Origin: an uncultured Hyphomicrobiales bacterium
GTDB taxonomy: Bacteria > Pseudomonadota > Alphaproteobacteria > Rhizobiales > Devosiaceae
Direction of reading: 5' to 3'
DNA: 64,000 bases
Assembly (NCBI GenBank): GCA_903828145.1
Contig: CAIKKY010000030.1
Location: forward strand, 49,658 to 113,657
Part shown: in pieces, positions 20,551-38,074 of the stretch
Numbering within the stretch: position 1 is the stretch's first letter
Layout: every line of letters starts with the position of its first letter
Made by a program: the position numbers and the translations under genes
Notes under the pieces: model-generated
Told to the model about the DNA's origin: nothing
Seen by the model: the letters and a program-made list of their open reading frames with translations, nothing else
The model's database searches: none

Positions 20551-20566
20551 GGCGGGGCCAATCCTC

Positions 20567-21238
20567 ATGCACCATCTGAGACGAATGATCTGGGCCGCCG
20601 TGCTGGCGGGCCTTGTGGCTGGCCTTGTTTCGGCTGGACTGATCGAGTGGCGCATCGCGCCCTTGATCGCCAGTGCCGAAACCTACGAGGAAGCGGCCCC
20701 CCATACCCATGAGGCGGGTGCGCCCGCCCATGATCACGCGGCCATGCCCCAGGGGGCGGCGCGGATTGCGCTCACCGGCCTCTCCACGGTGCTCGCCACC
20801 ATCGGCTTTGCGCTCCTTTTAGGCGGCGCGGCGCTGGTGCTCGACCTGCCGCTCACCCTGCGTACGGGGCCGCTCTGGGGACTCGGTGCTTTTGTTGCCG
20901 TTCAAGTGATGCCGGCGCTGGTTTTGCCGCTGCAATTGCCGGGCATGGCGGCGCTCGATCTGGGCACGCGACAGACGCTCTGGCTTGGCATTGCCACGCT
21001 GGCCGGAGCCGGGCTGCTGCTCGTGGCGAGACTGCGCTCCACCCCCCTGCGGCTTGCTGGGCTGGCGCTGGCGCTCAGCCCGCTGCTCATTCCCGTGGCG
21101 CTGCCCGAGGGCGGGGGGGTTGTCCCCCCCGAACTCGCCAGTGCCTTTGCCGCCAACAGCCTTGCCCTTGGGGCGCTCAGCTTTGCGGTGCTGGGCACGG
21201 CACTTGGCTATTTCAGCACCTGGAGACGCGCGCCATGA
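20567..21238 (+). CDS. cbtA: Cobalt transporter subunit CbtA
   Basis: PLIASAETYE, His patch, P-LVLP--LPG motif and TM helices; follows cbtB. Confidence 0.88.
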   Translation: MHHLRRMIWAAVLAGLVAGLVSAGLIEWRIAPLIASAETYEEAAPHTHEAGAPAHDHAAMPQGAARIALTGLSTVLATIGFALLLGGAALVLDLPLTLRTGPLWGLGAFVAVQVMPALVLPLQLPGMAALDLGTRQTLWLGIATLAGAGLLLVARLRSTPLRLAGLALALSPLLIPVALPEGGGVVPPELASAFAANSLALGALSFAVLGTALGYFSTWRRAP

Positions 21239-22290: not shown

Positions 22291-25200
22291 TGCACCTGTT
22301 ACGGGCTGAGGCGGGGGCGCTGCAGAACGAGGGCGAGGCGATCGACCTCGGCCAATCGCCCGCGCCCCTCGTCTTCGCCTCATCCGCCGATAGCGAGCTG
22401 GTGCTGCTCGCGGGGGCAGCAGACCGGGCGGGAGCAGCGGACCTGCGGCTCGCGCACCTCTTGCGGCTGAGCCACAACATGTCGGTAGACCTCTGGCTCG
22501 ATCAGACCGTGCGGCACGCGAGGCTCGTGGTGCTGCGGCTCCTCGGCGGCGCGGCCTATTTCCCTTATGGGGTCGCCGAACTCGATGCACTCTGCCGCAC
22601 GACCGGGGCGCGGCTGGTCCTGCTCCCCGGCGACGCCAACCCGGATCCCATCCTCCGCGACCGCTCAACCATTCCGGGCGACGATTGGGACCGGCTGCTC
22701 GGACTGTTCACCGCCGGTGGACCCGAAAATGCCGATGCGCTGCTGATGGCGTTCAGGGCGCTGGCCGAGGGCAGGCCGGTTGCGGCGCGGCCGGAGGCTT
22801 TTCTGCGCTTTGGCTACTGGCTGCCGGAGACGGGCATCGTCGACACCATGCCCCAGGCTGCCGGACCAAATGTGCCGATCCTGTTTTATCGCGCCCTGAT
22901 CGAGGGGGCCGGCACCGCCACGCTGACAGCGTTGATTACCGATTTGCGGACCGCCGGGCTCAACCCCGTGCCGCTCGTCATTTCGACGCTGAAGGAAAGG
23001 GCCTGCATCCGCTTCGTCAAGGCGGCGTTCGCAGCGCATGCGCCTGCGGCGATCCTCAATCTCACCGGCTTTGCCCTGGGGCTCGACGGGCTCGATGCCG
23101 CGCAGAACCCCTTTGCCGAAACCGATGCGCCGGTGATCCAGCTCCTCCAATCCGGCCGCTCGCGCGCCCTCTGGCAGGTCGACACGCAGGGGCTATCCTC
23201 CAAAGACCTCGCCATGCAGGTCGTGTTGCCCGAACTTGACGGACGGCATGGTATGATCCTCGTGGGCCATAAAGAGGAAGCAAGCTGGCACGCCCGCACC
23301 GAAACCGCGCTCTCGGCCTATGTGCCTGACGCCGAGGGCATCAGCCGTGCGGTTACCTTGGCAGGTAACCTTGCGCGTCTGCGCCAAACGCCGCCCGAGG
23401 CCCGCCGCGTGGCGCTGCTGCTGGCCAATTACCCGGTGCGCGACGGACGGCTCGCCAATGGCGTCGGCTATGATGCGCCCCAATCGACCATCGAAATCAT
23501 CGGTCTGATGCAATCGGCCGGATACGATACGGCTGGTGCCCCGCAATCGGCCGAGGCGCTGATGGCGCGCCTGCTCGCGGGCCCGACCAATGCCAACCCC
23601 GCGCGCTCTGGGGGTATTCCCTTCGCCCTCGCGGACTATCAACGGGCGTTCCGGGGTTTGCCCGGCGCAGTGCAAGCGGCGGTCACAGAACGCTGGGGCC
23701 CCCCGGAAGCCGATCCGTTTGTGCGGGATGCGGCCTTCCACCTGCCGGGTTTTGTGGCGGGCAATCTGGCCATCCTGCTCCAGCCGGCGCGTGGCTACCA
23801 TCTCGATCCGGCAACGAGCTATCACGACCCCGATCTCGTGCCGCCGCACGGCTATCTCGCGGCCTATTTCTGGGTGCGCCATGGTTTTGACGCCATGGCC
23901 CTGATCCACAACGGCAAGCACGGCAATCTCGAATGGCTGCCCGGCAAAGCCGTGGCGCTCGACCGGACGAGCTACCCGGCGGCGCTCTGGGCCGAGCTGC
24001 CGCAGCTCTACCCCTTTATCGTCAATGATCCCGGCGAGGGCACGCAGGCGAAGCGCCGCACCGGAGCGGTGATCATCGACCATCTCGTGCCGCCGCTCAC
24101 CCGCGCTGAACTCTACGGTCCGCTCAAAGACCTTGAAGCCCTGCTCGATGAGTATTTCGCCGCCTCCGGCCTCGACCGCCGCAGGCTCAAAGACATTGAG
24201 CGCCGTATCCTCGATTTCGCCCGCGATGCGCGGCTGGATCGCGACGTGCCGCTCAGCAGCGAAGCGGGGGAGAGCCTCAGGCGTCTCGATACGTTCCTCT
24301 GTGACCTGAAAGAGGCGCAGATCCGCGACGGGCTGCATGTTTTCGGCCAATCGCCCACGGGTCGGCTCAACCGCGACACGCTGGTGGCTCTGGCGCGCGT
24401 GCCGCGCGGGGAAGCGCCGGGCGACGCCTCGCTGATCCGCGCCTTGGCCGATGATCTGAAATTCGCCTTTGATCCCCTCACGGCCGATCTCGGCGCGCGC
24501 TGGCGCGGCCCCGGTGGCTTCAGGCGGGTGGGCGATGTCGTCACCCATCTCGAGGCGATTGCGGCTGACTTGGTGGATGGACGGGCGCCAGAGCCCGACT
24601 GGACCGCTACGCGGGCGGTGCTCGCTACCCTCGAGAGCACCATGCGTCCGCGCCTTGCCGCCTGTGGGCCAAACGAACGGGCGGCGCTGCTGTCGGGGCT
24701 CGATGGTCGCTTCATTGCGCCTGGCCCCTCGGGCGCTCCCTCACGCGGGCGGCTCGATGTGCTGCCCACCGGGCGCAATTTCTATTCGGTCGATAACCGC
24801 GCCATCCCCACTCAGACTGCCTGGGAACTGGGCCGCAAATCGGCTGAAGCGCTGCTCACCCGGCATTTTCAGGATCAGGGCACGCCGCTTGCGGCGCTGG
24901 CGCTTTCGGTCTGGGGCACCTCCACCATGCGTACGGGCGGCGATGATATCGCGCAGGCCCTGGCGCTCATTGGCGCTCGGCCGGTGTGGGACCCGGGTTC
25001 GCTCCGGGTGTCAGGCTATGAAATCATCCCGCTCGCCAAGCTGGGACGCCCCCGCGTTGATGTTACGCTGCGCATTTCCGGCTTTTTCCGCGATGCGTTT
25101 CCGGCCCAGATCGCGCTGTTCGACAAGGCCGTTCGGGCCATTGGTGCGCTCGATGAACCCGAGGGCGACAACCCGATTGCCCACCGCATGCGCATTGAGG

Positions 25201-25958
25201 CGCTGGGTTTGATGGCCAGCGGCCAAACCGCAGCCGAAGCCGCCCTGACCGCGGGCCACCGGATATTCGGCTCGAAGCCCGGGGCCTATGGCGCGGGCCT
25301 CCAGGCCCTCATGGATTCCGGGCAATGGTCGACCAAGGCGGACCTCGGCAATGCGTTTCTCGACTGGGGCCAATATGCCTATGGCGCCCACAGCGCCGGT
25401 GAGCCCATGCGCGACCGCTTTGCCCTGCGGCTGAGCCAGATTGATGTGGTGTTACACAATCAGGACAATCGCGAGCACGATCTGCTTGATTCCGATGATT
25501 ACTACCAGTTCGAAGGCGGGCTGGCTGCCGCAGCAGAAGCCGTGTCGGGACGCGCGCCACTCGGCTTCCATATGGATCATTCGCGGCCCGAAAACCCGGT
25601 GGCCCGAACGCTGGAGGAAGAGATTTCGCGGGTCATGCGCGCGCGCGTCGTCAACCCCAAGTGGATCGCCGGTGTGATGCGCCACGGCTATAAGGGGGCC
25701 TTCGAGATCGTCGCGACCGTCGATTACATGCTGGCGTTCGCCGCCACGACGGGTGCGGTGAAGAGCCACCATTTCGACCTCGCCTTTGCCGCCTTCATCG
25801 AAGACGATACAACGCGCGGCTTTCTATTGAGCGCCAACCGGCACGGCCATGACGAACTGCTTGACCGGTTCCGCGAGGCCGAGCGGCGGGGCTTCTGGAC
25901 TCCGCGCACCAATTCCGCCACCACCTGGCTCCATCCGCAACCGGACGACACCCCATGA
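22290..25958 (+). CDS. cobN: Cobaltochelatase subunit CobN
   Basis: 1222 aa; HNGKHGNLEWLPGK, GPSGAPSRG, LPTGRNFY and NPKWIAGVMRHGYKG motifs. Confidence 0.96.
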   Translation: MHLLRAEAGALQNEGEAIDLGQSPAPLVFASSADSELVLLAGAADRAGAADLRLAHLLRLSHNMSVDLWLDQTVRHARLVVLRLLGGAAYFPYGVAELDALCRTTGARLVLLPGDANPDPILRDRSTIPGDDWDRLLGLFTAGGPENADALLMAFRALAEGRPVAARPEAFLRFGYWLPETGIVDTMPQAAGPNVPILFYRALIEGAGTATLTALITDLRTAGLNPVPLVISTLKERACIRFVKAAFAAHAPAAILNLTGFALGLDGLDAAQNPFAETDAPVIQLLQSGRSRALWQVDTQGLSSKDLAMQVVLPELDGRHGMILVGHKEEASWHARTETALSAYVPDAEGISRAVTLAGNLARLRQTPPEARRVALLLANYPVRDGRLANGVGYDAPQSTIEIIGLMQSAGYDTAGAPQSAEALMARLLAGPTNANPARSGGIPFALADYQRAFRGLPGAVQAAVTERWGPPEADPFVRDAAFHLPGFVAGNLAILLQPARGYHLDPATSYHDPDLVPPHGYLAAYFWVRHGFDAMALIHNGKHGNLEWLPGKAVALDRTSYPAALWAELPQLYPFIVNDPGEGTQAKRRTGAVIIDHLVPPLTRAELYGPLKDLEALLDEYFAASGLDRRRLKDIERRILDFARDARLDRDVPLSSEAGESLRRLDTFLCDLKEAQIRDGLHVFGQSPTGRLNRDTLVALARVPRGEAPGDASLIRALADDLKFAFDPLTADLGARWRGPGGFRRVGDVVTHLEAIAADLVDGRAPEPDWTATRAVLATLESTMRPRLAACGPNERAALLSGLDGRFIAPGPSGAPSRGRLDVLPTGRNFYSVDNRAIPTQTAWELGRKSAEALLTRHFQDQGTPLAALALSVWGTSTMRTGGDDIAQALALIGARPVWDPGSLRVSGYEIIPLAKLGRPRVDVTLRISGFFRDAFPAQIALFDKAVRAIGALDEPEGDNPIAHRMRIEALGLMASGQTAAEAALTAGHRIFGSKPGAYGAGLQALMDSGQWSTKADLGNAFLDWGQYAYGAHSAGEPMRDRFALRLSQIDVVLHNQDNREHDLLDSDDYYQFEGGLAAAAEAVSGRAPLGFHMDHSRPENPVARTLEEEISRVMRARVVNPKWIAGVMRHGYKGAFEIVATVDYMLAFAATTGAVKSHHFDLAFAAFIEDDTTRGFLLSANRHGHDELLDRFREAERRGFWTPRTNSATTWLHPQPDDTP

Positions 25959-26596
25959 CCGACCGCGCCCCCAAGAAGACTGACCTGATGACCGAGGCCG
26001 AGCGCGATGCCTATCACGCTGAAAAAATGAAGAAAAAAAAGGAAGCGCGTAACCGCATCCTCGCGACGAAAACCGAGGAAAAGGGCCTCGTGATCGTCCA
26101 TACCGGCAAGGGCAAGGGTAAATCCACGGCGGCCTTCGGCATGGTGTTCCGGGCGCTGGGGCACGGCTTCACCGTGGGCGTGGTGCAATTCGTCAAGGGC
26201 GCCTGGGGCACTGGCGAGCGCACGGTACTCGAGCGCTTCCCCGACCTCGTGACCATCAAAGCCATGGGCGAGGGCTTCACCTGGGACGTTGCCGATCGTC
26301 AGCGCGACATCGCGGCTGCCCGCGCTGCGTGGGACGCGGCCAAAGTCATGATCGCCGACGAACGCTATAAGCTGATCCTTCTCGACGAACTCAACATCGT
26401 GCTGCGCTATGATTATCTGCCGCTCGATGAAGTGCTCGCGGTGCTGCACACCAAGCCGCGCGACACCCACGTCATCATCACCGGCCGCAACGCCAAGGAT
26501 GAGCTGATCGAGCTTGCTGACCTCGTGACCGAAATGACCGAAATCAAACACCCCTTCCGCGCCGGCGTGAAAGCGCAGAAGGGTATTGAGTTTTAG
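25955..26596 (+). CDS. cobO: Cob(I)yrinic acid a,c-diamide adenosyltransferase
   Basis: HTGKGKGKSTAAFG, LDELN, ITGRNA and KHPF motifs. Confidence 0.96.
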   Translation: MTDRAPKKTDLMTEAERDAYHAEKMKKKKEARNRILATKTEEKGLVIVHTGKGKGKSTAAFGMVFRALGHGFTVGVVQFVKGAWGTGERTVLERFPDLVTIKAMGEGFTWDVADRQRDIAAARAAWDAAKVMIADERYKLILLDELNIVLRYDYLPLDEVLAVLHTKPRDTHVIITGRNAKDELIELADLVTEMTEIKHPFRAGVKAQKGIEF

Positions 26597-26658
26597 GTGA
26601 GCCTTGCCTGATTTGGTAAGGAAAAACCCGCATCATCCCTTGTCCGAGGAGGTGTGGC

Positions 26659-27123
26659 ATGCGATTTTGGATCGTGATCTTCGTCATTGTGCACGTTGCG
26701 GAATTGGCTGGGCTGGCCCTATGCCTTTCGCAGTATCGCTTTGTCGATGCAGGGCTGCTCGCGGACGTTGTCGCGTCGGGCGCGCATGATGCCATCAGCC
26801 TCGCCTCGCAACTTGGCAGGCTGGACCTGCTGACCATAGTGCTCGGCGTTCTTGCCTTGTTGTTGACTGTTGGGACAATTCTGGTGGGGTGGTCGTTTTC
26901 GGCGACGGTAGAGAACCGCGCCAAGAATGAGCTTCGGGAGCTCTTGCCCGGCCTCTTAGCAGAGCAGCTTTCAGCTTCACTTCCAAATGATCTGAGGCAG
27001 CTTTTTGCGAGAGATCCGGGTATCATTGTTGACGCAATGCAGGAAAACCGCGAGATCATCGAGGCGGTTCTGGACGGGAATTCGGACTTCACAACGGAAG
27101 TTAGAGAAAACATTGATCGGTAA
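26659..27123 (+). CDS. Hypothetical protein with two N-terminal TM helices (lower GC)
   Basis: GAGGAGG SD, hydrophobic stretches at aa ~3-25 and ~56-80, 3 bp from the IrrE-like gene. Confidence 0.65.
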   Translation: MRFWIVIFVIVHVAELAGLALCLSQYRFVDAGLLADVVASGAHDAISLASQLGRLDLLTIVLGVLALLLTVGTILVGWSFSATVENRAKNELRELLPGLLAEQLSASLPNDLRQLFARDPGIIVDAMQENREIIEAVLDGNSDFTTEVRENIDR

Positions 27124-27126
27124 GGC

Positions 27127-27630
27127 ATGACTGATTCAGCGCAAGATATCATCAACGCCAATAGTGCGTCTGCGCCCGTCAACGTGGAGCAGATCGCTCG
27201 CGATCTCGGACTTGAGCTCGTCGCTAAGGCGAACCTGCCCGAGCAAATTGCCGGTTTGATCGAAAAGACCAAAAACAGTTACCGGATCAAGGTCAATGCG
27301 GCGGACCACTACTATCGGCGTCGCTTCACGATCGCCCATGAAATCGCGCATTTTCTGTTGCACCGGCATCTTCTTGGGGATGGAGTGGACGACAACCGCG
27401 CTTACCGGGCGACCGATACCGGTCAATACAGGCACTCGGAAATCGCTGCTTCGCACGAAGCGGAAGCGAACAGGCTTGCCGCCCACATTCTGATGCCGCC
27501 AAATTTGGTGAAGCGCGAGTATTCTGAAGCGAATCGGGATGTCGATACGCTGGCGAAGCGCCTCCAGGTGTCGCCTGCGGCCATGAAATATCGGCTGAAA
27601 GCGCTTGGGTACGAGGTTGATCTGACCTAA
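27127..27630 (+). CDS. ImmA/IrrE family metallo-endopeptidase
   Basis: RRRFTIAHEIAHFLLH (HExxH) and EAEANRLAAHILMP motifs. Confidence 0.88.
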   Translation: MTDSAQDIINANSASAPVNVEQIARDLGLELVAKANLPEQIAGLIEKTKNSYRIKVNAADHYYRRRFTIAHEIAHFLLHRHLLGDGVDDNRAYRATDTGQYRHSEIAASHEAEANRLAAHILMPPNLVKREYSEANRDVDTLAKRLQVSPAAMKYRLKALGYEVDLT

Positions 27631-27676
27631 TTTTCTGGCATTATTTGCCCTGTCGCCGGTAGCCATTCCGGGTAGG

Positions 27677-27700
27677 GGCCCTGCAGCACGCTGCGGGGCC
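27677..27700. terminator. Hairpin between the IrrE-like gene and the convergent CDF gene
   Basis: GGCCCTGCAG-CACG-CTGCGGGGCC stem-loop. Confidence 0.45.
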
Positions 27701-27714
27701 TCATTGTTTTGCCC

Positions 27715-28617
27715 TCACACCACCACGATGCCTGAGTGCTTGGCTTTTTCCTCGGGCTCGACATGGATGGTGATCTGCGCGTGTTCCACCGCGTCTTTGA
27801 GCTTCAGCTCAATGCCGTCGCAGATCTGGTGGGCCTGTTCCACGCTCATCGCGCCCGGCACCACGAGGTGGAAATCGATGAACGTCATCTTGCCCGCCTG
27901 CCGCGTGCGGATGTCATGCGCTTCAATGGCGCCCTCGGCATTGGCCGATATGATGTCGCGGATGAGGTGCAGCGTCTTGGGTTCCACCGCCACATCCATC
28001 AGCCCGATCACGCTTTGCTTGATGAGTTCCCACCCCGACCAGAGGATGGTCAGGCCCACAAGCCCCGCGAGAATGGCATCGAGTTGCGGCCAGTTGAGAG
28101 CGGCGGCAAGCAGCACGCCAAGCAGCACGCCGAGCGTCGAGCCGACATCGGTGGCGAGATGTCTGCCATCGGCCTGCAGCGCGGGTGAGCCGGCCTTTTT
28201 GCCCTCCCGCAGCAGCCACCATGACCACCCGGCGTTGGCAATGGACGCGAGCACGCTCACACTGATGCCCCAGGGATCGAGCCGAAAGCCGCGCGGGCTA
28301 ATGAAGCCGTGCCAGGCCTCGTTGAAAATCAGGATCGCTGCGACCACGATGAACACGCCGATGACGACGGCCGAGAAATATTCGGCCTTGTGGTAGCCAT
28401 AGGGCAGGGCCTCGTCAGCCGGGCGGGCCGACAGGCGCACCGCGACCAGCGCGACAAGGGCGGTGACGACATTGACCACGCTTTCAAGCGCATCGGAATA
28501 GAGCGCGATGGAGCCGGTGCTCCAGGCGGCAAAGGCCTTGAGGGCCAGCACGACGACTCCGACGACAAGGCTGCCGTAGGCGACATGGATGGCAATGCGA
28601 CTGGTTTTAGCGCTCAT
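27715..28617 (-). CDS. Cation diffusion facilitator (CDF) transporter
   Basis: SDALESVVN, YGYHKAEY, ADGRHLATD and IDFHLVV..IHVEP motifs. Confidence 0.92.
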   Translation of the reverse strand: MSAKTSRIAIHVAYGSLVVGVVVLALKAFAAWSTGSIALYSDALESVVNVVTALVALVAVRLSARPADEALPYGYHKAEYFSAVVIGVFIVVAAILIFNEAWHGFISPRGFRLDPWGISVSVLASIANAGWSWWLLREGKKAGSPALQADGRHLATDVGSTLGVLLGVLLAAALNWPQLDAILAGLVGLTILWSGWELIKQSVIGLMDVAVEPKTLHLIRDIISANAEGAIEAHDIRTRQAGKMTFIDFHLVVPGAMSVEQAHQICDGIELKLKDAVEHAQITIHVEPEEKAKHSGIVVV

Positions 28618-28784
28618 TGCAGGCCAATAGACCGCGCGAGCGGGCAAGGCAAGCCCGGCGCGCCGCCGGAACCGGGGCTGGCAAGCGCCTCATTTTGCAA
28701 GTGATTTTCATCCGCAGCGGCCCATGGGGCCGGAATCGTTTGACCCCTCATCGGCTGGCCTCTACAACCCGTTGAAAGCGCAGC

Positions 28785-28910
28785 GTTCCTTGACGGACTG
28801 AAAGACATTCCGGTGCGGTTGACCCAAACAGGGGGCCAAGTCCGGAGCTGCCAAGCTGTCGATGAACGCTGCCTCCACTGCAATGGGGCTGGGGAAAACC
28901 CGCCTGCCTG
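28785..28910 (+). ncRNA. Degenerate cobalamin riboswitch-like leader
   Basis: Retains GTTCC..GGA, CCGGTG..TCCGG, GCTGCC, CTGT, CCACTG..GGGAA and CCTGCC in consensus order; lacks AGGGAA, CCCGCAA and AGCCAGGAGA. Confidence 0.55.
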
Positions 28911-28923
28911 CGAAGAGGCTGAA

Positions 28924-30168
28924 ATGGATAAGTCGCTCATCCTGCCCAAGGGCACAGGGGTCATGCTGTGCGGGCACGGCAGCCGCAACCGCCGCGCCGT
29001 TGATGAGTTTTCGGCGCTCGCCGATAAGCTGCGCCAGCGCCTGCCCGGTGTTCCGGTTGAGTATGGCTATCTCGAGTTCGCCAATCCCGTGATTCATGAA
29101 GGGCTGGAAAAGCTCCGCGCCGCCGGGGTCAACCGCATCCTCGCAGTGCCGGGCATGCTGTTTGCCGCCGGGCACGCCAAGAACGATATTCCCTCGGTGC
29201 TCAATACCTGGCAGGCGAGCCACCCCGGGGTTGAAGTCACCTATGGCCGCGAACTGGGCGTCGATCTCAAGATGCTGCGGGCGGCGGGCGACCGGATTGC
29301 CGCAGCAATAGACGGGGCGCAAACCAGCATTCCGCGCACCGAAACCCTGTTGCTCGTCGTCGGCCGGGGCGCATCTGATCCGGACGCGAATTCGAACGTC
29401 GCCAAGGTCATGCGCATGCTGTGGGAAGGCATGGGCTTCGGTTGGGCCGAGGTTGCGTATTCGGGGGTCACGTTCCCGCTCGTCGCCCCCGCGCTCGATC
29501 ATGTGGCGCGGCTGGGGTATGCCCGCGTCATCGTCTTCCCGTATTTCCTGTTTACCGGCGTGCTGGTGAACCGCATTTACGATGCCGTGGCCGAAGCGCG
29601 GGCGAAATACCCCCAGATCGACTTCCTCGATGCGCCCTATCTCAATGACCACCCGATGGTGGTTGAAACCTTTGTCGATCGCCTGCAGGAAATGCTGGTG
29701 GGGCAGAACCTCATGAACTGCGCGATGTGCAAGTATCGCGAGCAGGTTTTGGGCTTCGAGGCCGAAGTGGGCCTCAGGCAGGAAAGCCACCACCACCATG
29801 TCGAAGGCATCGGCGGCGGGCTGGAAAACTGCCCCTGCAAGGGGGATTGCGACGGGTCATGCCGCGACGAAGCCTTCTGCAAGCGCCATAACCTGCCCTG
29901 GACCCCGCTCGCAAGCCATGACCACGGCGCGCATGGTCATGCGCACGGCCACGACCATGGTCCGCACACCCATACTCATGCCCCGGCGCGCCACGCGCTC
30001 CTGAACCCGGCGGCGCCGCTCATCGCACTCGGCACCGGGCCCGATCAGAACAAGGCCGAGCCGCCCGAGCACACGCACCATCCCTACCCCCATGCCGATC
30101 ACCCGCTGGGGCCGAAAACCCTGCCCAAGGTGCCGGGCCGTCGGGCGCGTGAGGAGCGGCAGGGCTGA
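28924..30168 (+). CDS. cbiX: Sirohydrochlorin chelatase CbiX (long form, Fe-S motif, His-rich tail)
   Basis: LCGHGSR, YLEFANP, AAGHAKND, VGRGASDPDANS and MNCAMCKYR motifs. Confidence 0.9.
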   Translation: MDKSLILPKGTGVMLCGHGSRNRRAVDEFSALADKLRQRLPGVPVEYGYLEFANPVIHEGLEKLRAAGVNRILAVPGMLFAAGHAKNDIPSVLNTWQASHPGVEVTYGRELGVDLKMLRAAGDRIAAAIDGAQTSIPRTETLLLVVGRGASDPDANSNVAKVMRMLWEGMGFGWAEVAYSGVTFPLVAPALDHVARLGYARVIVFPYFLFTGVLVNRIYDAVAEARAKYPQIDFLDAPYLNDHPMVVETFVDRLQEMLVGQNLMNCAMCKYREQVLGFEAEVGLRQESHHHHVEGIGGGLENCPCKGDCDGSCRDEAFCKRHNLPWTPLASHDHGAHGHAHGHDHGPHTHTHAPARHALLNPAAPLIALGTGPDQNKAEPPEHTHHPYPHADHPLGPKTLPKVPGRRAREERQG

Positions 30169-31040
30169 TGCTGTTTGACCGCTTCATCGCGGTGGACTGG
30201 TCGGCGGCCAATGCGCCCCGGCTGGGTGCAAACGCCATCTGGATTGCTGAAACCGGCAGATCCAGCTGCAATCTCCCGACGCGTCACGCCGCCATGACCC
30301 ATCTCAGAACGCGACTGCGGGCAGCGCTGGCGGCAGGCGAGCGCCTGCTGGTGGGCTGCGATTTCAGCTTCGGCTTCCCGCTGGGCGCAGCCGAGCGCCT
30401 TGCGGGCTCGGCCGATTGGCGCGCGCTCTGGGCGCGCCTTGCGGCGGCAATCATTGATGGCCCCGATAACAGGTCCAACCGCTTCGATGTGGCCTCGGCG
30501 TTCAACGTCCGGTTGGGCCAGCCGCTGTTCTGGGGGCACCCGGTGGGACGGAGCTACCCGGCGCTCGCGCCACGACGCACGCCAGCCGCCTATGCCGAAA
30601 TAGCGGAAAAACGGTTGGCAGAGCGGCTCACCCGCGCGGCCCAGCCGGTGTGGAAACTCATGGGTGCGGGGTCGGTGGGGAGCCAGACCCTTTTGGGTAT
30701 CGCGCATCTCGAAGCCCTGCGGCAAGATGCCGAGCTGGGCCCGGCCATCGCCGTCTGGCCCTTTGAAACCGGCTTTACCGGCCCATTCGTCCGGCCCATT
30801 ACCCTGTGTGAAATCTACCCGTCGATGTTTCCCCTGGCCGCTGACACAGAGCCGCGCGACCGCGCGCAGGTCGAAGCCGTTGTGGCGGGCTTTGCGGCGC
30901 TCAACCGGGCCGATGCGCTCGGGGCGCTCCTCGCGCCGCCCCTGCTCGATAGCGCGACGACCAACGGCCTGCTCTCCGAAGAAGGCTGGATTGCTGGTGT
31001 CGGGCGTGAGGCCATGCTGGTGGGGAGACTGGCCGCATGA
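30168..31040 (+). CDS. Uncharacterised protein, DUF429/RNase H-like fold inferred
   Basis: FIAVDWS, LVGCDFSFGFP and CEIYP acidic motifs; translationally coupled to cbiX and cobH. Confidence 0.7.
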   Translation: MLFDRFIAVDWSAANAPRLGANAIWIAETGRSSCNLPTRHAAMTHLRTRLRAALAAGERLLVGCDFSFGFPLGAAERLAGSADWRALWARLAAAIIDGPDNRSNRFDVASAFNVRLGQPLFWGHPVGRSYPALAPRRTPAAYAEIAEKRLAERLTRAAQPVWKLMGAGSVGSQTLLGIAHLEALRQDAELGPAIAVWPFETGFTGPFVRPITLCEIYPSMFPLAADTEPRDRAQVEAVVAGFAALNRADALGALLAPPLLDSATTNGLLSEEGWIAGVGREAMLVGRLAA

Positions 31041-31660
31041 GCTATGTCCGCGACCCCGCAGCCATCTACGCCCAAAGCTTTACCACCATCCGGGCCGAAG
31101 CCGATCTCTCGGGTCTGCCTGAGGCGCTTCATCCGCTCGCCATCCGCATGATCCATGCTTCCGGCATGGTCGATCTCGCAGCGGATATCGTCGGCACGGC
31201 CGATCTGCCCCGCGCCGTGGCCGAGGCTGTGGCCGCTGGGGCGCCGGTGTTCTGCGATTGCGCAATGGTGCGGGCGGGGCTCATCACGCGCGATTTGTCC
31301 GCCCATGCCGATCTCCGCGTCACGCTCAATGCTGATGCGGTGCCAGCGCTGGCGGCCCGGCTTGGCACCACCCGCTCCGCTGCGGCTGTCGAGTTGTGGC
31401 GCAATGACCTGGCGGGGGCGGTCGTGGTGATCGGCAATGCCCCTACGGCGCTGTTTCATCTGCTCGAGATGATCGAACAGGGCGCGCCGCGTCCGGCGGC
31501 GATCATTGCCACACCGGTTGGATTTGTCGGTGCGGCGGAAAGCAAGGACTTGCTTGCCGCAGCGCGGCACGCCATTGCCTTCCTCACCGTGCGCGGGCGC
31601 CGGGGCGGCTCGGCCATCGCGGCAGCGGGATTTAACGCGGCCCTGAGAGGATTGTCATGA
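31037..31660 (+). CDS. cobH: Precorrin-8X methylmutase
   Basis: IYAQSF, RMIHASG, TRSAAAV, IGNAPTALF and GFVGAAESK motifs. Confidence 0.96.
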   Translation: MSYVRDPAAIYAQSFTTIRAEADLSGLPEALHPLAIRMIHASGMVDLAADIVGTADLPRAVAEAVAAGAPVFCDCAMVRAGLITRDLSAHADLRVTLNADAVPALAARLGTTRSAAAVELWRNDLAGAVVVIGNAPTALFHLLEMIEQGAPRPAAIIATPVGFVGAAESKDLLAAARHAIAFLTVRGRRGGSAIAAAGFNAALRGLS

Positions 31661-33015
31661 CGGCCTGGCTCACCCTGATCGGCATTGGCGAAGACGGGCT
31701 GGCGGGCCTGCCTGCTGCGCATCGCCGGCTGGTGGACGATGCCTCGGTCGTCATTGGCGCGGCGCGGGTTCTCGCGGCCCTGCCGCCGGCTGTGGCCCCG
31801 GCGCGGCCGCGCGCTGCCGATGTGCCGGGCGATTTCATTGCCCAGCAGAGTTTCGATGCCATTGCCCGGGCCCTGGCCGGGGAAACGGCCGTGGTGAGAG
31901 CTGAAGTGCCGCTGCCTGAACCGCAGCGCCGCATGGCATGGGAGCCCGGGCTCGAGCGCATGATCGCGCAGCTTATGGACCTGCGTGATACACCCACGGT
32001 GGTGCTCGCCTCGGGCGATCCGATGTGGTTCGGCATGGGCGCTACGCTCACCCGCACGCTGTTGCCGTCTGAATTTGCGGTCCTGCCGGCCCCCAGCGCC
32101 TTCCAGCATGCGGCGGCGCGACTTCATTGGCCCCTGCAATCGATCGATTGCCTGTCGCTGCATGGGCGGCCCGTGGAAATGCTGCATCCGGCGCTGCAGC
32201 CGAACAATCGGATTCTGGCGCTGACGTCGGACCGCACGACGATTGATCTCGTGCTCGAACTCCTGGTCGATCGCGGCTATGGGCAAAGCCAGGTCACCGT
32301 GCTCGAAAATCTGGGTGGATCGGACGAGCGGATCACCGAGGGGCTGGCCCTTGGCTTTGAGTCCGGCGCCGTTGGCGACCTTTATGTGCTGGCGATTGAT
32401 TGCGTGGCCGAATTTGGCGCGCGCCTCCGCCCCACCGTTCCGGGCCTGCCCGACGACGCCTTTGTGACCGATGGGCAGCTGACCAAGCGTGAAGTGCGCG
32501 CCATGACGCTCGCTCGGCTCGCACCGTTTCCTGGCGCTGTGCTGTGGGATGTTGGGGCCGGTTCGGGCTCCATTGGCATTGAGTGGATGCGGTCTGCCCG
32601 CGGTGCCCATGCCATTGCCTTTGAACGCGAGGGTGAGCGCTTGCAGAATATTGCCGTCAACGCCGCTGCGCTCGGTGTACCCCATCTTGAAATCGTGCCC
32701 GGATCGGCGCCCGAAAGCTTTGGCAAGCGGGCTCCGCCCGACGCGATTTTCATCGGCGGCGACGTGGCCAATGATCTGCTGTTTGATGCCTGCTGGACGG
32801 CGCTGAAGCCGGGCGGACAGCTGGTGGCCAATGCCGTCACCGTCGATGGCGAACGGGCGCTCTATGATTGGCAGGAGCAACTGGGCGGTGACATCACCCG
32901 CATTGAAACCTCGATGCTTGATCGGGTGGGCGGCCGCCGCGTGCTGCGCCCGCGCATGGCGGTCACCCAATGGTCTGTCGTCAAACTGCCCCATGGCGAG
33001 GCGGCGGAACAATGA
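31657..33015 (+). CDS. cobL: Precorrin-6Y C5,15-methyltransferase (CbiE/CbiT bifunctional)
   Basis: IGIGEDG, LASGDPMWFG, SLHGRP, GQLTKREVRA and WDVGAGSGS motifs. Confidence 0.93.
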   Translation: MTAWLTLIGIGEDGLAGLPAAHRRLVDDASVVIGAARVLAALPPAVAPARPRAADVPGDFIAQQSFDAIARALAGETAVVRAEVPLPEPQRRMAWEPGLERMIAQLMDLRDTPTVVLASGDPMWFGMGATLTRTLLPSEFAVLPAPSAFQHAAARLHWPLQSIDCLSLHGRPVEMLHPALQPNNRILALTSDRTTIDLVLELLVDRGYGQSQVTVLENLGGSDERITEGLALGFESGAVGDLYVLAIDCVAEFGARLRPTVPGLPDDAFVTDGQLTKREVRAMTLARLAPFPGAVLWDVGAGSGSIGIEWMRSARGAHAIAFEREGERLQNIAVNAAALGVPHLEIVPGSAPESFGKRAPPDAIFIGGDVANDLLFDACWTALKPGGQLVANAVTVDGERALYDWQEQLGGDITRIETSMLDRVGGRRVLRPRMAVTQWSVVKLPHGEAAEQ

Positions 33016-33722
33016 GCGGCACGCTGTTTCTTGTGGGTGTCGGCCCCGGTGATCCCGATCTCATCACGCTGAAGGCGGCGCGGCTCCTTGCCATGGTGCC
33101 GGTCATTGCCTACCCACAGACCGGCGAGGGTGCCGCGCTGGCGCGGGAGATTGCGGCACCGCACCTCAACCCCGCCGCGCTCCATATCCCCGTTGATCTG
33201 CCGATGAGCACGGACCGCGCACCGGCGCAGCAGGCCTATGATGGCGCCGCGATGCGCATCCTGGCCCAGCTTGCGGCGGGGCGTGATGTGGCCTGGCTCA
33301 CCGAAGGCGACCCGCTGTTTTACGGCTCGGCCATGTATCTGGTTGCCCGCATTGCGGCCTCGGCCCCGGTGCGGGTCATCCCCGGCATTACGGCGCTCAC
33401 GGCGGCGGCGGCGGCCATCAATCGGCCGCTGGCGGCCCGTAACGAAACGCTCAAAGTGCTGCCCGCCCCGCTCGATGACGAAACGCTGCGGCGCGAATTG
33501 GCCGATGCTCCGGCTGTCGCCATCATCAAGGTCGGTCGGCATTTCGACCGTATCAGGGCCCTCCTCGAAACAACCGGCCATGCCGCCTCAGCCATGGTGG
33601 TGGAACACGCCACGACCCCGCGCCAGCGCATCACGCCGTTGCGGGCCTTTGCGCATGACGAGCGGCCGTATTTTTCAACGATTCTCTGTTATCGGGGCGC
33701 GGAGGCCTGGGCCACGCCATGA
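33012..33722 (+). CDS. cobI: Precorrin-2 C20-methyltransferase
   Basis: GVGPGDPDLITLKA, EGDPLFYGS and PGIT motifs. Confidence 0.94.
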   Translation: MSGTLFLVGVGPGDPDLITLKAARLLAMVPVIAYPQTGEGAALAREIAAPHLNPAALHIPVDLPMSTDRAPAQQAYDGAAMRILAQLAAGRDVAWLTEGDPLFYGSAMYLVARIAASAPVRVIPGITALTAAAAAINRPLAARNETLKVLPAPLDDETLRRELADAPAVAIIKVGRHFDRIRALLETTGHAASAMVVEHATTPRQRITPLRAFAHDERPYFSTILCYRGAEAWATP

Positions 33723-35467
33723 TCGCCTTGATCGTCTTTTTTGCCGGCCAGGGCGAGACTGTGGCCGAGCGCATCGCCCTGAGCCTCAAGGGTGAACTGG
33801 TCCGTTGTGGCCCCGGCTTTGCCGACGCCGCCACCCTGCTGCCCGCAGCCTTCAGCGCGGGCCGAACCATTATCGGGGTTGCCGCCTCCGGCATTCTCAT
33901 CCGGCTGCTTGCGCCCGTGCTGTCGAACAAGGCCCTTGAGCCAGCCGTGCTCGCCGTGTCGATTGACGGGGCCTCAATTGTGCCGCTGTTGGGCGGTCAT
34001 CGCGGCGCGAACCATCTGGCGCGCACTATCGCGGCGCTGACGGGCGGACACGCCGCCATCACCACGGCCTCCGACATCCGCTTTGGCGGCGCGCTCGATG
34101 AACCGCCTGCGGGCTACGCCCTCTCCAATCGCGAGGCGGCGCGCGCGGCCATGGCAGCCGCGCTTCAGGGCGAAGCCCTAAAGCTGACAGGCGATGCACC
34201 GTTCCTTGCGGCCTGGGGCTATCCCATCGACCCCGAAGGCACAATTGCGGTGCGTGTCACCGATCAGGCGGTCGCGGGGCTCGCCTATCATGAAAAGCGG
34301 CTGGTCGCCGGGCTGGGTTGCGAACGCGGTGCCTCGGCCGACGAGGTGATCGGGCTGGTTACCGCGACGCTGGCCGGGGCCGGGCTCGCCCCCCAGGGCC
34401 TGGCCGCCCTCGCCTCCATCGATATCAAGGCCGATGAGCCGGCGCTCCTCGCCGCCGCGCGCCATTTCAAGGTGCCGCTGCGGCTGTTCTCCGCTGCCGA
34501 TCTGGCGGGCGAAACGGTTCCCACCCCATCACACTATGTGGCCGACACCGTGGGTACACCCTCGGTGGCCGAAGCGGCGGCGCTGAAGGCCGGGCCGCTC
34601 CTCGTCGAAAAGCGGAAATCGGCCCGTGCCACCTGCGCCATTTCGCGTGGGTCCTGGCCCTTCGACGCTGAAACCTTCGGGCATGCTCCCGGTCTCGTGC
34701 ATCTCGTCGGGCTCGGGCCCGGCGCTCCTGCCGAGCGGACCGGGTCGGCCATTGCCGCATTGCAGACAAGCAGCGATTGGGTCGGCTACGGCCTCTATCT
34801 CGATCTCGCAGCGGACCTGCAGCAGGGCCAGACCGAACACCGCTTTGCCCTGGGCGAAGAAGAAGTGCGGGTTCGCCATGCGCTCGAACTCGCCGCAACC
34901 GGCAAGACCGTTGCGCTCCTTTGTTCGGGCGATTCCCAGATCTATGCCATGGCGGCGCTGGCCTATGAACTGCTCTCGGCTGACGGCGCCCGGGCCCTGA
35001 GCCACCGCGCGCAGCGGGTGAGCATCGCCACGCATCCAGGCATTTCCGCCTTTCAGGCGGCGTCGGCGGCGGCCGGGGCGCTCATTGGCCATGATTTCTG
35101 CTGTATCTCGCTCTCTGACCTTCTGACCCCGCGCGAGGATATTGAACAGCGGCTCACCGCCGCCGCGACCGGCGATTTCGTCACCGCGTTCTACAACCCG
35201 CGTTCGGGGCGACGACTTGATCTGCTGGATCGCGCCACGGCGATTTTCCGCGCGCACCGGCCCGCCACCTGTCCGGTGATCGTGGCCAAAAGCCTCGGGC
35301 GCAAGGAGCAGCAGGTGCGCGTCCTGCCGCTTTCGGCGTTCGATCCCGCTGAAGTCGATATGCTCACCATTGTGCTCATCGGCTCATCCACCTCAAAGAG
35401 CTTCGACAAGGCCGGCCAGACCGTCGCCTTCACCCCCCGTGGCTATGCCAAAAAGGCCAGCTTATGA
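33719..35467 (+). CDS. cobJ: CbiG-CobJ fusion (cobalt-precorrin-5A hydrolase-like plus precorrin-3B C17-methyltransferase)
   Basis: N-terminal LLGGHRGAN, ITTASD, GLGCERG and SVAEAAAL; C-terminal VGLGPG, SGDSQIY, ISLSDLLTP and FYNPRS. Confidence 0.92.
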   Translation: MIALIVFFAGQGETVAERIALSLKGELVRCGPGFADAATLLPAAFSAGRTIIGVAASGILIRLLAPVLSNKALEPAVLAVSIDGASIVPLLGGHRGANHLARTIAALTGGHAAITTASDIRFGGALDEPPAGYALSNREAARAAMAAALQGEALKLTGDAPFLAAWGYPIDPEGTIAVRVTDQAVAGLAYHEKRLVAGLGCERGASADEVIGLVTATLAGAGLAPQGLAALASIDIKADEPALLAAARHFKVPLRLFSAADLAGETVPTPSHYVADTVGTPSVAEAAALKAGPLLVEKRKSARATCAISRGSWPFDAETFGHAPGLVHLVGLGPGAPAERTGSAIAALQTSSDWVGYGLYLDLAADLQQGQTEHRFALGEEEVRVRHALELAATGKTVALLCSGDSQIYAMAALAYELLSADGARALSHRAQRVSIATHPGISAFQAASAAAGALIGHDFCCISLSDLLTPREDIEQRLTAAATGDFVTAFYNPRSGRRLDLLDRATAIFRAHRPATCPVIVAKSLGRKEQQVRVLPLSAFDPAEVDMLTIVLIGSSTSKSFDKAGQTVAFTPRGYAKKASL

Positions 35468-36246
35468 CCGTCTATTTCATTGGTGCCGGTCCCGGCGCGC
35501 CGGACCTCATCACGCTGCGCGGCCACAGGCTGATCGAGCGCTGCCCGGTCTGCCTGTATGCCGGGTCGCTGGTGCCCGCTGAGATCGTTGCCGTTGCGCC
35601 CCAAGGGGCTCTGGTGCGCGACACCGCGCCCATGACCCTCGATGAGATCATCGCCGACATCACCGCCGCCCATCAGCGGGGGGAGGATGTCGCGCGGGTC
35701 CATTCGGGCGATCCCTCGATCTATGGGGCGGTGGCCGAGCAGATGCGGCGGCTCGATGCGCTCGACATTCCTTACGAGGTGGTGCCCGGCGTGCCCGCCT
35801 TCGCGGCGGCAGCGGCGGTGCTCAATGCCGAACTGACCCTGCCCGATGTGGCCCAGACCATCATCCTCACCCGCACGAGCGGCAAAGCGACGCCCATGCC
35901 GCCGGGCGAAAGCCTTGAAGAGCTGGGGGCGAGCAAAGCGACGCTCTGCATTCACCTCTCCATCCGCAACCTGGCCTATGTCGAGGAGGCGCTGACCCCG
36001 CATTATGGCGCCGATTGCCCGGTGGCGATTGTCTATCGGGCGAGCTGGCCCGATCAAACGGTGCTGCACACCACGCTCGGCGACATGCGGGTGAAGGTGC
36101 GCGAGGAAAAGATCACGCGCACGGCGCTGGTCATGGTGGGGCGGGTTTTTGGCGAAACCGCCTTCCGCGAGTCGCGTCTTTACGATGCTGATTTTGCCCA
36201 TGTGCTGCGCAACAAGGGCAAGAAAAAGAGCCGCGCCGAGGGCTAG
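35464..36246 (+). CDS. cobM: Precorrin-4 C11-methyltransferase
   Basis: GAGPGAPDLIT, YAGSLV, RVHSGDPSIYG and RASWPDQ motifs. Confidence 0.96.
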   Translation: MTVYFIGAGPGAPDLITLRGHRLIERCPVCLYAGSLVPAEIVAVAPQGALVRDTAPMTLDEIIADITAAHQRGEDVARVHSGDPSIYGAVAEQMRRLDALDIPYEVVPGVPAFAAAAAVLNAELTLPDVAQTIILTRTSGKATPMPPGESLEELGASKATLCIHLSIRNLAYVEEALTPHYGADCPVAIVYRASWPDQTVLHTTLGDMRVKVREEKITRTALVMVGRVFGETAFRESRLYDADFAHVLRNKGKKKSRAEG

Positions 36247-36247
36247 G

Positions 36248-36979
36248 TCACGGCCGGTCAAGCCGCAGCGCGGCAATCACCTGGCCGAGGGTCGGGGCCT
36301 CGGGTGCCGGCAGGAGCCTTGGCCGGTCGATCATCACCACGGCGATGCCGAGTTCCGCCGCCGCGTCCAGCTTGGCAGCCGTCTGCACACCGCCCGAATT
36401 CTTTGAGACGAGATGGCTGATGCCCTGATGCGTCATCAGGTCGAGTTCAGCGCTGAGGAAATAGGGCGGCCGCGACAGGATTGAAATCGCATTGATCGGC
36501 AGACGGTGCGTTAACGGCTCGATGGTGCGCACCACGAACGAGCAATCGGTGCGGGCAAAGAAGCTTTCAATCTCGGTGTGCCCGGTGGTCAGCAGCGCCC
36601 GTGCCCCGGCAGGCAGAAGCGAGGCGGCTTCGGCCCCGTCGGTGGCGCGAATCCAGTCGATCCCCGGCGGCTCCTGCCATTCCGGGCGGCTGTAGCGCAC
36701 CAGCCGGATTCCCGTGGCCTCTGAGGCCAAAACGGCATTGGTCTTGATCCGCGCCGCATAAGGATGCGTGGCATCGACGATGCGTTCAATGCGCGTGCGG
36801 ATGAGATAGGTCGTGAGCCCCTCGATGCCGCCAAAGCCGCCGACGCGGGTTTCCACCACGGGCATGAGCGGCGTTGAGGTGACGCCTGCCAGTGAGCTGA
36901 TGACTGCGTGGCCCATGGCGTCGAGCCGCTCCGCGAGGAGCCGCGCTTCTTCGGTGCCGCCGAGGATCAGGATCCGCAT
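36248..36979 (-). CDS. cobK: Precorrin-6A reductase
   Basis: ILGGTEEA, GGFGG, VDATHPYA and VSKNSGG motifs. Confidence 0.94.
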   Translation of the reverse strand: MRILILGGTEEARLLAERLDAMGHAVISSLAGVTSTPLMPVVETRVGGFGGIEGLTTYLIRTRIERIVDATHPYAARIKTNAVLASEATGIRLVRYSRPEWQEPPGIDWIRATDGAEAASLLPAGARALLTTGHTEIESFFARTDCSFVVRTIEPLTHRLPINAISILSRPPYFLSAELDLMTHQGISHLVSKNSGGVQTAAKLDAAAELGIAVVMIDRPRLLPAPEAPTLGQVIAALRLDRP

Positions 36980-36982
36980 GGC

Positions 36983-38074
36983 CTAGCTGCTTTCCCCGAT
37001 AACGACGCCCGCCCGGTCGACCACCAGAATATCGACCTGCACCTTATCGCCGACCATGGCCGCAGCGCGGGTCCGCGCCAGCGCGGCAATGGGGGGCGCC
37101 ATCGCGATTCCCGCCGCTGAGGCGAGCGCGAGGGCCGCATTGGCCGACAGCGCACCGCGCACCCCATCGGCAAGCCGCGTATCACCGCCGAGGCGCTCGA
37201 CCAGTTGCCCCAGCGCATCGAGATCAACCTGTGAGCGGCCTGAATGGAGATCCATGGCCCCCTGCGCCAGCTTGCTGAGCTTGCCGAACCCCCCGGCAAT
37301 GGTCACGCGCGGCACCGGGTGCGCCTTGAGATATTTGAGCAGTCCGCCCACGAAATCGCCCATATCGATATAGGATTCCATCGGCAGCCCGAGCCGCCGC
37401 ATCGCCGCCTGTTCAGAGAGGTCGCCGGTGGAGCCCACGACATGATCGAGCCCCATGGCGCGGGCTACATCGACGCCGCGATGGATCGAGTGAATCCAGG
37501 CCGAGCAGGAATACGGCACCACAATGCCGGTCGTGCCGAGGATCGACAGGCCACCGACAATGCCAAGGCGCGGGTTCCAGGTTTTTTCCGCAAGCCGCGC
37601 GCCGTCCCGCACGGCCAGGGTCAGCGCGAAATCGGGCGGTACGCCATGGGCTGCCGCGAGCTGGTCCACCACCTGCCGCATCATCTGGCGCGGCACCGGG
37701 TTGATGGCCGGTTCGCCCACCGCGATGGGCAGGCCGGGCCGTGTCACCATGCCCACGCCTTCGCCGGCCTGGAAGGTGAGGCCCGACCCGGGCGGGGCGG
37801 GAGCGATTCGCGCAAGAACCAGCGCCCCGTGCGTCACATCGGGGTCGTCACCAGCATCCTTGATAATTCCCGCTTCGGCCCAGCCCGACCCCTGCCGTTC
37901 CTCGGCCAAGGCAAAGTCCACGGCCTGTCCGCCGGGCAGGGTGATGGTCACCGGATCGGGAAAGCCGTCACCCAAAAGGGCCGAGAGCGCGGCGCGCGTG
38001 GCGGCAGTGGCGCAGGCGCCCGTGGTCCAGCCCCGCCTTAGCACCTTGCTCTCAGCCGAAAAATCATCGCTCAT
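36983..38074 (-). CDS. cbiD: Cobalt-precorrin-5B C1-methyltransferase
   Basis: LRRGWTTGACA, KDAGDDPDVTHG, AINPVPR and GGLSILGTTG motifs. Confidence 0.96.
   Translation of the reverse strand: MSDDFSAESKVLRRGWTTGACATAATRAALSALLGDGFPDPVTITLPGGQAVDFALAEERQGSGWAEAGIIKDAGDDPDVTHGALVLARIAPAPPGSGLTFQAGEGVGMVTRPGLPIAVGEPAINPVPRQMMRQVVDQLAAAHGVPPDFALTLAVRDGARLAEKTWNPRLGIVGGLSILGTTGIVVPYSCSAWIHSIHRGVDVARAMGLDHVVGSTGDLSEQAAMRRLGLPMESYIDMGDFVGGLLKYLKAHPVPRVTIAGGFGKLSKLAQGAMDLHSGRSQVDLDALGQLVERLGGDTRLADGVRGALSANAALALASAAGIAMAPPIAALARTRAAAMVGDKVQVDILVVDRAGVVIGESS

Follow-up and report, generated by a model that had tools for sequence, protein, structure and literature searches.

A conserved, unnamed protein family with a predicted RNase H-like fold resides in cobalamin operons and is very probably not a step of corrin-ring synthesis

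Introduction

The gene considered here is a 290-codon open reading frame (nucleotides 30168-31040, forward strand) read from the sequence between cbiX and cobH, in the cobalamin (B12) biosynthesis cluster of an uncultured Hyphomicrobiales bacterium of the Devosiaceae; positions are those of the whole 64,000-nucleotide stretch analysed, hereafter the window. Its product, the target protein, belongs to a large, conserved family without a name, and is predicted to have an RNase H-like core carrying four invariant carboxylates. The gene is very probably a passenger of the operon, being neither a step of corrin-ring synthesis nor a stand-in for the oxygenase CobG, and the likeliest function of its product is metal-dependent phosphodiester hydrolysis in some general role.

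Results

Conservation of the gene and its motifs

The target is a real, conserved gene, far from a chance open frame, because one search returned 1,089 homologues and another, an exhaustive HMMER scan, at least 1,787 representative clusters at 50% identity, 502 of them below 1e-30; its start codon is backed by homologues opening with M(P)LFDRY. Both translational couplings described in an initial annotation, which was made from the sequence alone, can be read directly: the stop codon of cbiX (TGA, 30166-30168) gives its A to the target ATG at 30168, forming TGATG, and the stop codon of the target (TGA, 31038-31040) is overlapped by the ATG of cobH (31037-31039), forming ATGA. The view that the gene is locked in its operon is likewise borne out, in that the order cbiX-target-cobH-cobL-cobI-cbiGcobJ-cobM recurs in 51 of the 80 closest genomic loci, these 51 coming from Devosiaceae, Rhizobiaceae, Aurantimonadaceae, Ahrensiaceae and Rhodospirillaceae.

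No Pfam family matches the target protein (P0001), even at E=10, and a sequence-profile search of the PDB returned no match. As the initial annotation had held, no canonical Cob/Cbi family of Pfam or NCBIfam matches it either, the CobH/CbiC domain (PF02570) sitting in the next gene; the sole NCBIfam match is the 'unknown domain' of NF011066/PRK14495, a MobB fusion (E 4.6e-43). The acidic motifs singled out at the outset are present (AVDWSA, residues 8-13; CDFSFGFP, residues 64-71; EIYP, residues 215-218) and, in an alignment of 98 diverse sequences on which conservation was scored, fall on invariant or near-invariant columns, i.e. D10, W11 and S12; D65, F66, G69 and P71; E215 and P218. Twelve positions are invariant in that alignment (D10, W11, R39, D65, G171, Q173, W197, P198, E215, D231, Q234 and E272), and D10, D65, E215 and D231 are invariant also in 35 fusions to CobH. 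Further family-specific motifs, DNxSNRF, FWGHP, ERRxAE and QPVWKLxGxGSVGSQ, lie within an insert described below.

Predicted fold

An AlphaFold (AF2) model of the target, built with the 98-sequence alignment, is of very high confidence, with a predicted local distance difference test score (pLDDT) of 96.8 and a predicted template-modelling score (pTM) of 0.93. The order of elements is beta-beta-beta-alpha-beta ... beta-alpha, with three strands, a helix and the fourth strand contained in residues 5-64, followed by a mostly helical insert to about residue 210, a fifth strand (residues 211-215) and C-terminal helices, so that the protein is predicted to comprise one RNase H-like core with a helical insert of approximately 145 residues. 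Foldseek searches against the PDB returned nothing for the target below E 0.2, and the weak matches at or above this value are all RNase H-like, including the UvrC endonuclease, RNase H, YqgF and ASKHA N-domains. In a second, Foldseek-independent structural alignment against 48,161 chains, the top matches (Z 6.5-5) are RuvC-type nuclease domains, i.e. those of Cas12, Cas9, IscB, phage and Thermus RuvC, a terminase nuclease, Ydc2, a poxvirus resolvase and the YqgF domains of Tex/Spt6.

The trait of clade D of the RNase H-like superfamily (RuvC/YqgF/DUF429; Majorek et al. 2014), acidic residues ending the first and fourth core strands, is seen in the target as D10 and D65, and is accompanied by the invariant E215 and D231. 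In the model, D10, D65 and E215 terminate strands 1, 4 and 5, and D231 is on the helix that follows, as in the RuvC pattern; the carboxylates would occupy the positions at which RuvC/YqgF-type enzymes bind two divalent metals.

Occurrence relative to corrin-ring synthesis

Of 201 evenly sampled alphaproteobacterial genomes, 21 have a strong homologue of the target (carriers) and 70 have CobH. There is enrichment of CobH among the carriers (14 of 21, versus 56 of 180 non-carriers), and a target homologue is found in 14 of the 70 CobH-positive genomes only. Each carrier has one copy, which adjoins cobH in six cases, four of them as fusions, and seven of the 21 carriers are without CobH. The initial annotation had named two outcomes that would speak against a B12-pathway role, homologues lying mostly outside cob clusters and a deletion leaving B12 yield and intermediates unchanged; these counts bear out the former, which is half of that test. 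Of ten carriers examined in which the gene lies away from cob clusters, CobH is missing from nine and CobU from seven, and two of those lacking both (Aquisalinus luteolus and Parvularcula lutaonensis) also lack MoeA. No B12 riboswitch was found beside the non-cob copies in 11 loci.

The complementary case is provided by 20 cobH regions, one from a carrier with its copy elsewhere (G129) and the other 19 from genomes in which no strong homologue is present; of these regions, 13 have the order cbiX-cobH-cobL-cobI-cbiGcobJ(-cobM) with nothing between cbiX and cobH. The target is, therefore, not obligatory in the cbiX-type cob operon. The initial annotation had also suggested a tie to the lack of cobG in the cluster. 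True CobG is found in none of the cases in which the gene adjoins cobH, and the CobG model TIGR02435 finds in genome G000 only a sulfite-reductase-type protein, on another contig and under the cut-off; one carrier with the gene elsewhere (G122) has true CobG. The cobalt-early set CbiX, CbiG-CobJ(CbiH) and CbiD makes the CobG oxygenase and CobF unnecessary, and the cluster can be without cobG because CbiX, CbiG-CbiH and CbiD are present, the cobalt-early route needing no oxygenase. With this set in place, and with 13 of 20 like clusters managing without the gene, the suggested tie does not hold.

A link to the B12-dependent ribonucleotide reductase NrdJ was considered and set aside, NrdJ being too common to inform (18-19 of the 21 carriers versus approximately 65% of the other genomes, in a tally that takes in the unpublished genome G072).

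Genomic contexts, fusions and phylogeny

Outside the cbiX/cobH slot, family members are found between an rluB-like pseudouridine synthase gene and rsmD (Parvularculaceae and related metagenome-assembled genomes), next to mobA, where they are often fused to MoeA (Paracoccaceae), and in settings with a divergent cobD, eipA/lysR, DUF1552, a convergent CCA-adding enzyme or an HD-ACT protein. RNA-related neighbours of the non-cob copies comprise the RluB-like pseudouridine synthase, RsmD, RlmH and the CCA-adding enzyme.

Fusions to CobH, for which a search had been proposed, proved abundant, accounting for 37 of 59 long homologues, 17 of these 37 being among the 150 top representative clusters. The other long homologues include fusions to CobE/CbiG (three), CobL (two), MoeA (two), MobA, a class II aldolase and DinB_2 (one each), whilst the fusion to MobB defines the NCBIfam model NF011066. 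A CobU-target fusion is present as a 542-residue open frame in a genome without CobH (L094, G042), and in another genome a family member lies directly downstream of cobU (L091, G041), which connects the family to the nucleotide-loop and salvage branch of B12 metabolism too. It may be that the fusions are a mere by-product of the four-base ATGA overlap in a fixed gene order. An AF2 model of a 497-residue CobH fusion has two well-folded domains (pLDDT 92, pTM 0.62) joined by a soft linker; it lends no support to a fixed target-CobH interface, none being confidently predicted.

In a maximum-likelihood tree of 97 copies, taxonomy is followed and context is stable within lineages, with the gene contexts interleaved over the tree as a whole, e.g. 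the CobU-fused copy, whose genome has no CobH, is the sister of a CobH-fused one. The copies thus do not split off a 'B12 subfamily'. A decayed remnant was found in a 429-residue CobH (L114:859-2148, reverse strand, G226), in which a shortened target-domain copy, the only one kept in that lineage, is without strands 2-3 and the insert motifs, and has D10 and D231 replaced.

Relation to DUF429

The initial annotation had called the gene DUF429/RNase H-like. The RNase H-like part of this label finds support in AF2, Foldseek and the structure search, but the DUF429 part does not. The target does not reach the gathering score of PF04250 (23 bits), a genome-wide PF04250 search of genome G000 gave no matches, and seven members of a paralogous 'DWSGAK' subfamily also fail this model. 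The DWSGAK subfamily occurs in other Alphaproteobacteria (L108-L113, L115, L116; alignment A5), likewise has no Pfam family, and matches the target profile at E 1e-12 to 1e-25 and with an hhalign probability of 99.9%; as it is related to the target yet has no PF04250 match, no transitive bridge to DUF429 was found through it. When true DUF429 proteins were gathered from related genomes for profile comparison, hhalign gave probabilities of 21% (E 1e-3, six sequences) and 13% (E 2e-3, 21 sequences), VDWS being paired with GvDG and GFDFxFGYP with AvDMPIGLP, so that the invariant Asp residues of beta1 and beta4 are aligned in both runs; via the DWSGAK profile, EIYP is paired with E.HPE of DUF429. 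By language-model features, DUF429 is carried by 22 of the 30 nearest named clusters in a protein atlas. On these comparisons the target appears DUF429-like, rather than a member of DUF429.

DUF429 has been assigned to the RuvC/YqgF clade by Majorek et al. 2014 (PMC3985635), who also describe its fusions to NUDIX and RelA/SpoT domains. The sole studied example is the N-terminal 'RNase HII' domain of Mycobacterium smegmatis RelZ/RnhD (MS_RHII-RSD), a protein that cleaves RNA:DNA hybrids and R-loops, though only when full length (PMC7591505, PMC5224475).

Two side observations concern DUF429 itself. In one genome (G097, L137:583-2214, a 543-residue open frame) pyridoxal kinase (PdxY/PdxK) and a canonical DUF429 form a fusion, and in four others (L082, L083, L084, L139) DUF429 lies directly downstream of, or overlaps, a pdxY-like gene, a further cofactor-enzyme partnership of the DUF429-like superfamily. 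In the 201 sampled genomes the target family and true DUF429 each occur in 21, with an overlap of zero versus approximately two expected by chance, which hints at interchangeable roles, but is not significant.

Features of the window and neighbouring genes

The coordinates of the target, its partners and its putative catalytic residues are collected in Table 1. After cobH the operon continues with cobL (CbiE+CbiT), cobI, a cbiG-cobJ fusion and cobM, with cobK and cbiD on the opposite strand; more distant genes of the cluster are cobB, cobQ, cobD and cobU, and cbtA, cobW, cobN and cobO lie on the upstream side.

Table 1. Coordinates of the target gene, its couplings, partners and conserved elements in the window
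Feature	Position	Strand	Basis
Target gene; 290 residues, single-domain, predicted RNase H fold (RuvC/DUF429-like), unnamed family	30168..31040	+	Open reading frame, translation, NF011066, AF2, fold matches
TGATG stop/start overlap of cbiX and target (translational coupling)	30166..30170	+	Direct sequence reading
ATGA start/stop overlap of target and cobH (translational coupling)	31037..31040	+	Direct sequence reading
Upstream partner, 451-residue CbiX-type chelatase with two CbiX stretches	28813..30168	+	Pfam PF01903, E 4.2e-54; kept upstream in cob-type loci
Downstream partner cobH/cbiC, precorrin-8X methylmutase	31037..31660	+	PF02570, E 2.6e-61; fused to target domain in many other genomes
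Codon of Asp10, end of strand beta1 (VDWS), putative metal ligand	30195..30197	+	Invariant; model strand 5-10
Codon of Asp65, just past strand beta4 (DFxFGxP), putative metal ligand	30360..30362	+	Invariant; model strand 60-64; pairs with DUF429 invariant Asp (hhalign)
Codon of Glu215, end of strand beta5 (EIYP)	30810..30812	+	Invariant; model strand 211-215; pairs with E..HPE of DUF429 via paralogue profile
Codon of Asp231, start of helix after beta5 (with Gln234)	30858..30860	+	Invariant; model helix 230-247
Helical insertion of ~145 residues (66-210), beta4-beta5	30363..30797	+	Secondary structure of model and conservation

Within window positions 20345-38074 the cluster combines late-cobalt genes (cbtA, cobW, cobN) with cobalt-early genes, the latter encoding the double-CbiX protein, the 582-residue CbiG-CobJ fusion and CbiD, a hybrid layout that is seen again in many Alphaproteobacteria. 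A second conserved unknown of the cluster is a 230-residue open frame between cobO and cbiX (27704-28396, forward strand), which has no Pfam or NCBIfam match and which tblastn finds again, identically placed, in 14 or more Devosiaceae-type loci (e.g. L001, L005, L006, L008-L010, L014, L017, L036 and L059).

Among the homologues, several from Devosia (P0040, P0063 and P0071; loci L044, L046, L057 and L068) contain in-frame low-complexity insertions of 50-80 residues, with runs such as PSP..GER..RGG, in two different loops, past residue ~30 or ~80; these look like a translated GC-rich repeat element tolerated by the protein. The genes for 6S RNA and 5-formyltetrahydrofolate cyclo-ligase are usually syntenic (ssrS-ygfA), and a 6S RNA gene precedes that for the cyclo-ligase at L035:9900-10057, 3 kb downstream of a non-cob copy, an arrangement without bearing on the present findings.

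Discussion

Proposed function

The assignment of the target as, probably, a metal-dependent phosphodiester hydrolase is favoured because of the combination of fold, carboxylate set and DUF429 precedent. The four carboxylates (D10, D65, E215 and D231) would bind two divalent metals, which would drive phosphodiester hydrolysis, and this in turn would serve a general cellular role, independent of B12 or molybdenum-cofactor (Moco) synthesis. The substrate of first choice would be nucleic acid, in the form of structured RNA or of an RNA:DNA hybrid, in line with what is reported for RelZ/RnhD and its DUF429 domain; it is favoured because of the RuvC-like fold, the RelZ precedent, the RNA-modification neighbours and the independence from cofactor pathways. 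The complete proposal, in which the target is an unfused member of a large family, unnamed and sister to DUF429, and has the above activity with nucleic acid as its preferred substrate, is tentative, even if it is the one we prefer.

Several observations weigh against this proposal. The structural Z scores (6.5 at most) are under the level safe for a fold match alone, and kinship to DUF429 appears at the motif level only and is not statistically established. RelZ itself shows RNase H activity only as the complete protein, in which the domain is fused to a (p)ppGpp synthetase, and the specificity of this activity is unreported (PMC7591505, PMC5224475). Carriers are, moreover, already equipped with RNase HI and RNase HII; a role for the target in replacing these enzymes was rejected, since five carriers have both. 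The fusion partners are nearly all cofactor or nucleotide enzymes, rather than repair or replication proteins. The family is not basic (median isoelectric point 7.1, net charge 0), and its approximately 20 conserved polar residues, together with the Gly-rich GxGSVGSQ loop, look more like a small-ligand pocket than a nucleic-acid surface.

Alternative explanations

The same fusions and pocket-like features are what would be anticipated for a cofactor-pathway accessory, in which the two-metal site hydrolyses or binds a phosphate- or nucleotide-bearing intermediate, e.g. GDP-cobinamide, molybdopterin guanine dinucleotide or adenylylated molybdopterin. Such an accessory would be dispensable, helping the late steps of B12 or Moco synthesis by proofreading, recycling or hand-over. 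We consider such a role possible, if doubtful. The range of B12 and Moco partners (CobH, CobL, CobE/CbiG, MoeA, MobA, MobB and CobU), the cobU and cobD neighbours, the enrichment of CobH in carriers, the neutral isoelectric point with many conserved polar residues and a Gly-rich loop, and the pairing of DUF429 relatives with pyridoxal kinase (five loci), NUDIX and RelA/SpoT domains (PMC3985635) are all consistent with it. It is difficult to reconcile, however, with homologues at 40-50% identity, unseparated on the tree, in genomes without CobH, CobU and MoeA, or with the absence of the gene from most otherwise identical cob clusters. The substrates of CobH and CobL carry no nucleotide or phosphate, the fusion model has no fixed interface between the domain and CobH, the non-cob copies have no riboswitch, and four-base overlaps in a fixed gene order may by themselves yield fusions. 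A broader version, in which the whole DUF429-like superfamily may consist of RNase H-fold hydrolases of phosphate- or nucleotide-linked cofactors rather than nucleases, forming an optional quality-control or recycling layer common to the B12, Moco and B6 pathways, seems to us unlikely.

A non-catalytic carrier or scaffold, binding a labile tetrapyrrole, a pterin or a partner enzyme so as to protect it or hand it over, as proposed for CobE, would fit the fusions to CobE/CbiG_C, CobH and CobL, the eight near-invariant tryptophans, which could stack on a planar ligand, and the catalytically decayed remnant kept on CobH in one lineage; it is nevertheless improbable, because invariance across approximately 100 diverse sequences extends beyond the four carboxylates to Q173, Q234 and E272, which argues for chemistry rather than mere binding, and since the fusion model has no confident domain interface and the gene occurs in genomes without either pathway. 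The idea of an unrecognised corrin-ring enzyme making up for absent CobG (ring contraction) or CobF draws on the tight coupling to cbiX and cobH and on the lack of true CobG wherever the gene lies beside cobH, but is close to refuted: the cobalt-early set dispenses with both enzymes, most same-type clusters are without the gene, carriers include a true-CobG genome and genomes without any ring synthesis, and the predicted fold would lack the redox cofactor site expected of an oxygenase. Hardly more credible is a selfish or defence nuclease inserted into operons, despite the Cas12, Cas9 and IscB RuvC domains among the top structural matches and the position of the gene at junctions in several unrelated operons. 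PADLOC and PHROGs gave no match (E up to 0.01), nothing was seen of a transposase, a guide-RNA-like partner or flanking repeats, or of near-identical recent copies at different sites, on plasmids or in phages, and the single copy per genome, with a tree that follows taxonomy and a context that is stable within lineages, does not fit a mobile element.

Significance

To our knowledge, the B12 and Moco pathways are regarded as fully enumerated. The target family is unnamed and conserved, and its catalytic site appears intact; across several phyla, its members are found translationally coupled with, or fused to, seven different B12/Moco enzymes. It is uncharacterised, is without a Pfam entry, and has an unexplained habit of residing in cofactor operons. 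In the library searched, we found no paper joining an RNase H-like fold with cobalamin biosynthesis, nor any on PRK14495, and the paper on pCMU01 contained nothing pertinent. Assignment of a function would mend a widespread mis-annotation, in which unfused copies are named 'precorrin-8X methylmutase' or 'CbiG family', would account for the 'long CobH' enzymes, and would put to the test the idea that DUF429-type proteins with the RNase H fold are active on nucleic acids in the first place. For the engineering of B12-producing strains the message is a negative one, since the target very probably does not supply a biosynthetic step that has been missed.

Comparison with known systems

A likeness of theme only is offered by mycobacterial RnhC/Rv2228c, in which RNase HI is fused to a CobC-like acid phosphatase, i.e. 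an RNase H fold is combined with a homologue of a B12 enzyme (PMC4429107, PMC5224475); unlike the target, RnhC is a genuine RNase H of type 1 (PF00075), and the partner differs. The best structural matches of the target, the RuvC/YqgF (RuvX) nucleases and the RuvC domains of Cas9 and Cas12, share with it the placement of carboxylates, which end beta1 and beta4 and are also borne by the C-terminal helix. The target is set apart from them by its low similarity (Z 5-6.5, <10% identity), 145-residue insert, neutral isoelectric point and lack of a recombination or CRISPR context.

Two systems contain the target family itself. The NCBIfam model NF011066/PRK14495, 'putative MobB / unknown domain fusion protein', matches the target end to end over model positions 167-446, and so describes the same family; by contrast with that equivalog, the target has no MobB half and scores 147.8 bits versus a cut-off of 596. 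In the 'long' two-domain CobH proteins (X-CbiC, ~495-550 residues) of Alphaproteobacteria and others, which the Joint Genome Institute (JGI) names precorrin-8X methylmutase, X is the target protein (53-58% identity) and is followed by CobH, whereas in the window the target and cobH are separate genes overlapping by ATGA. The 'methylmutase' name borne by unfused homologues is a carry-over, since the target is without PF02570.

DUF429 (PF04250; COG2410/COG4328/COG4923) is the nearest named family to the target by language-model features. Both would have an RNase H-like core of the RuvC/YqgF clade and the same invariant order, D on beta1, D..P after beta4, E..P after beta5 and D on the next helix, and both are approximately 240-300 residues long, mostly single-domain and repeatedly fused to metabolic enzymes. 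DUF429 is, however, without the large helical insert bearing the DNxSNRF, FWGHP and GSVGSQ motifs, and the partners also differ, those of the target family being B12 and Moco enzymes and those of DUF429 being pyridoxal kinase, NUDIX and RelA/SpoT.

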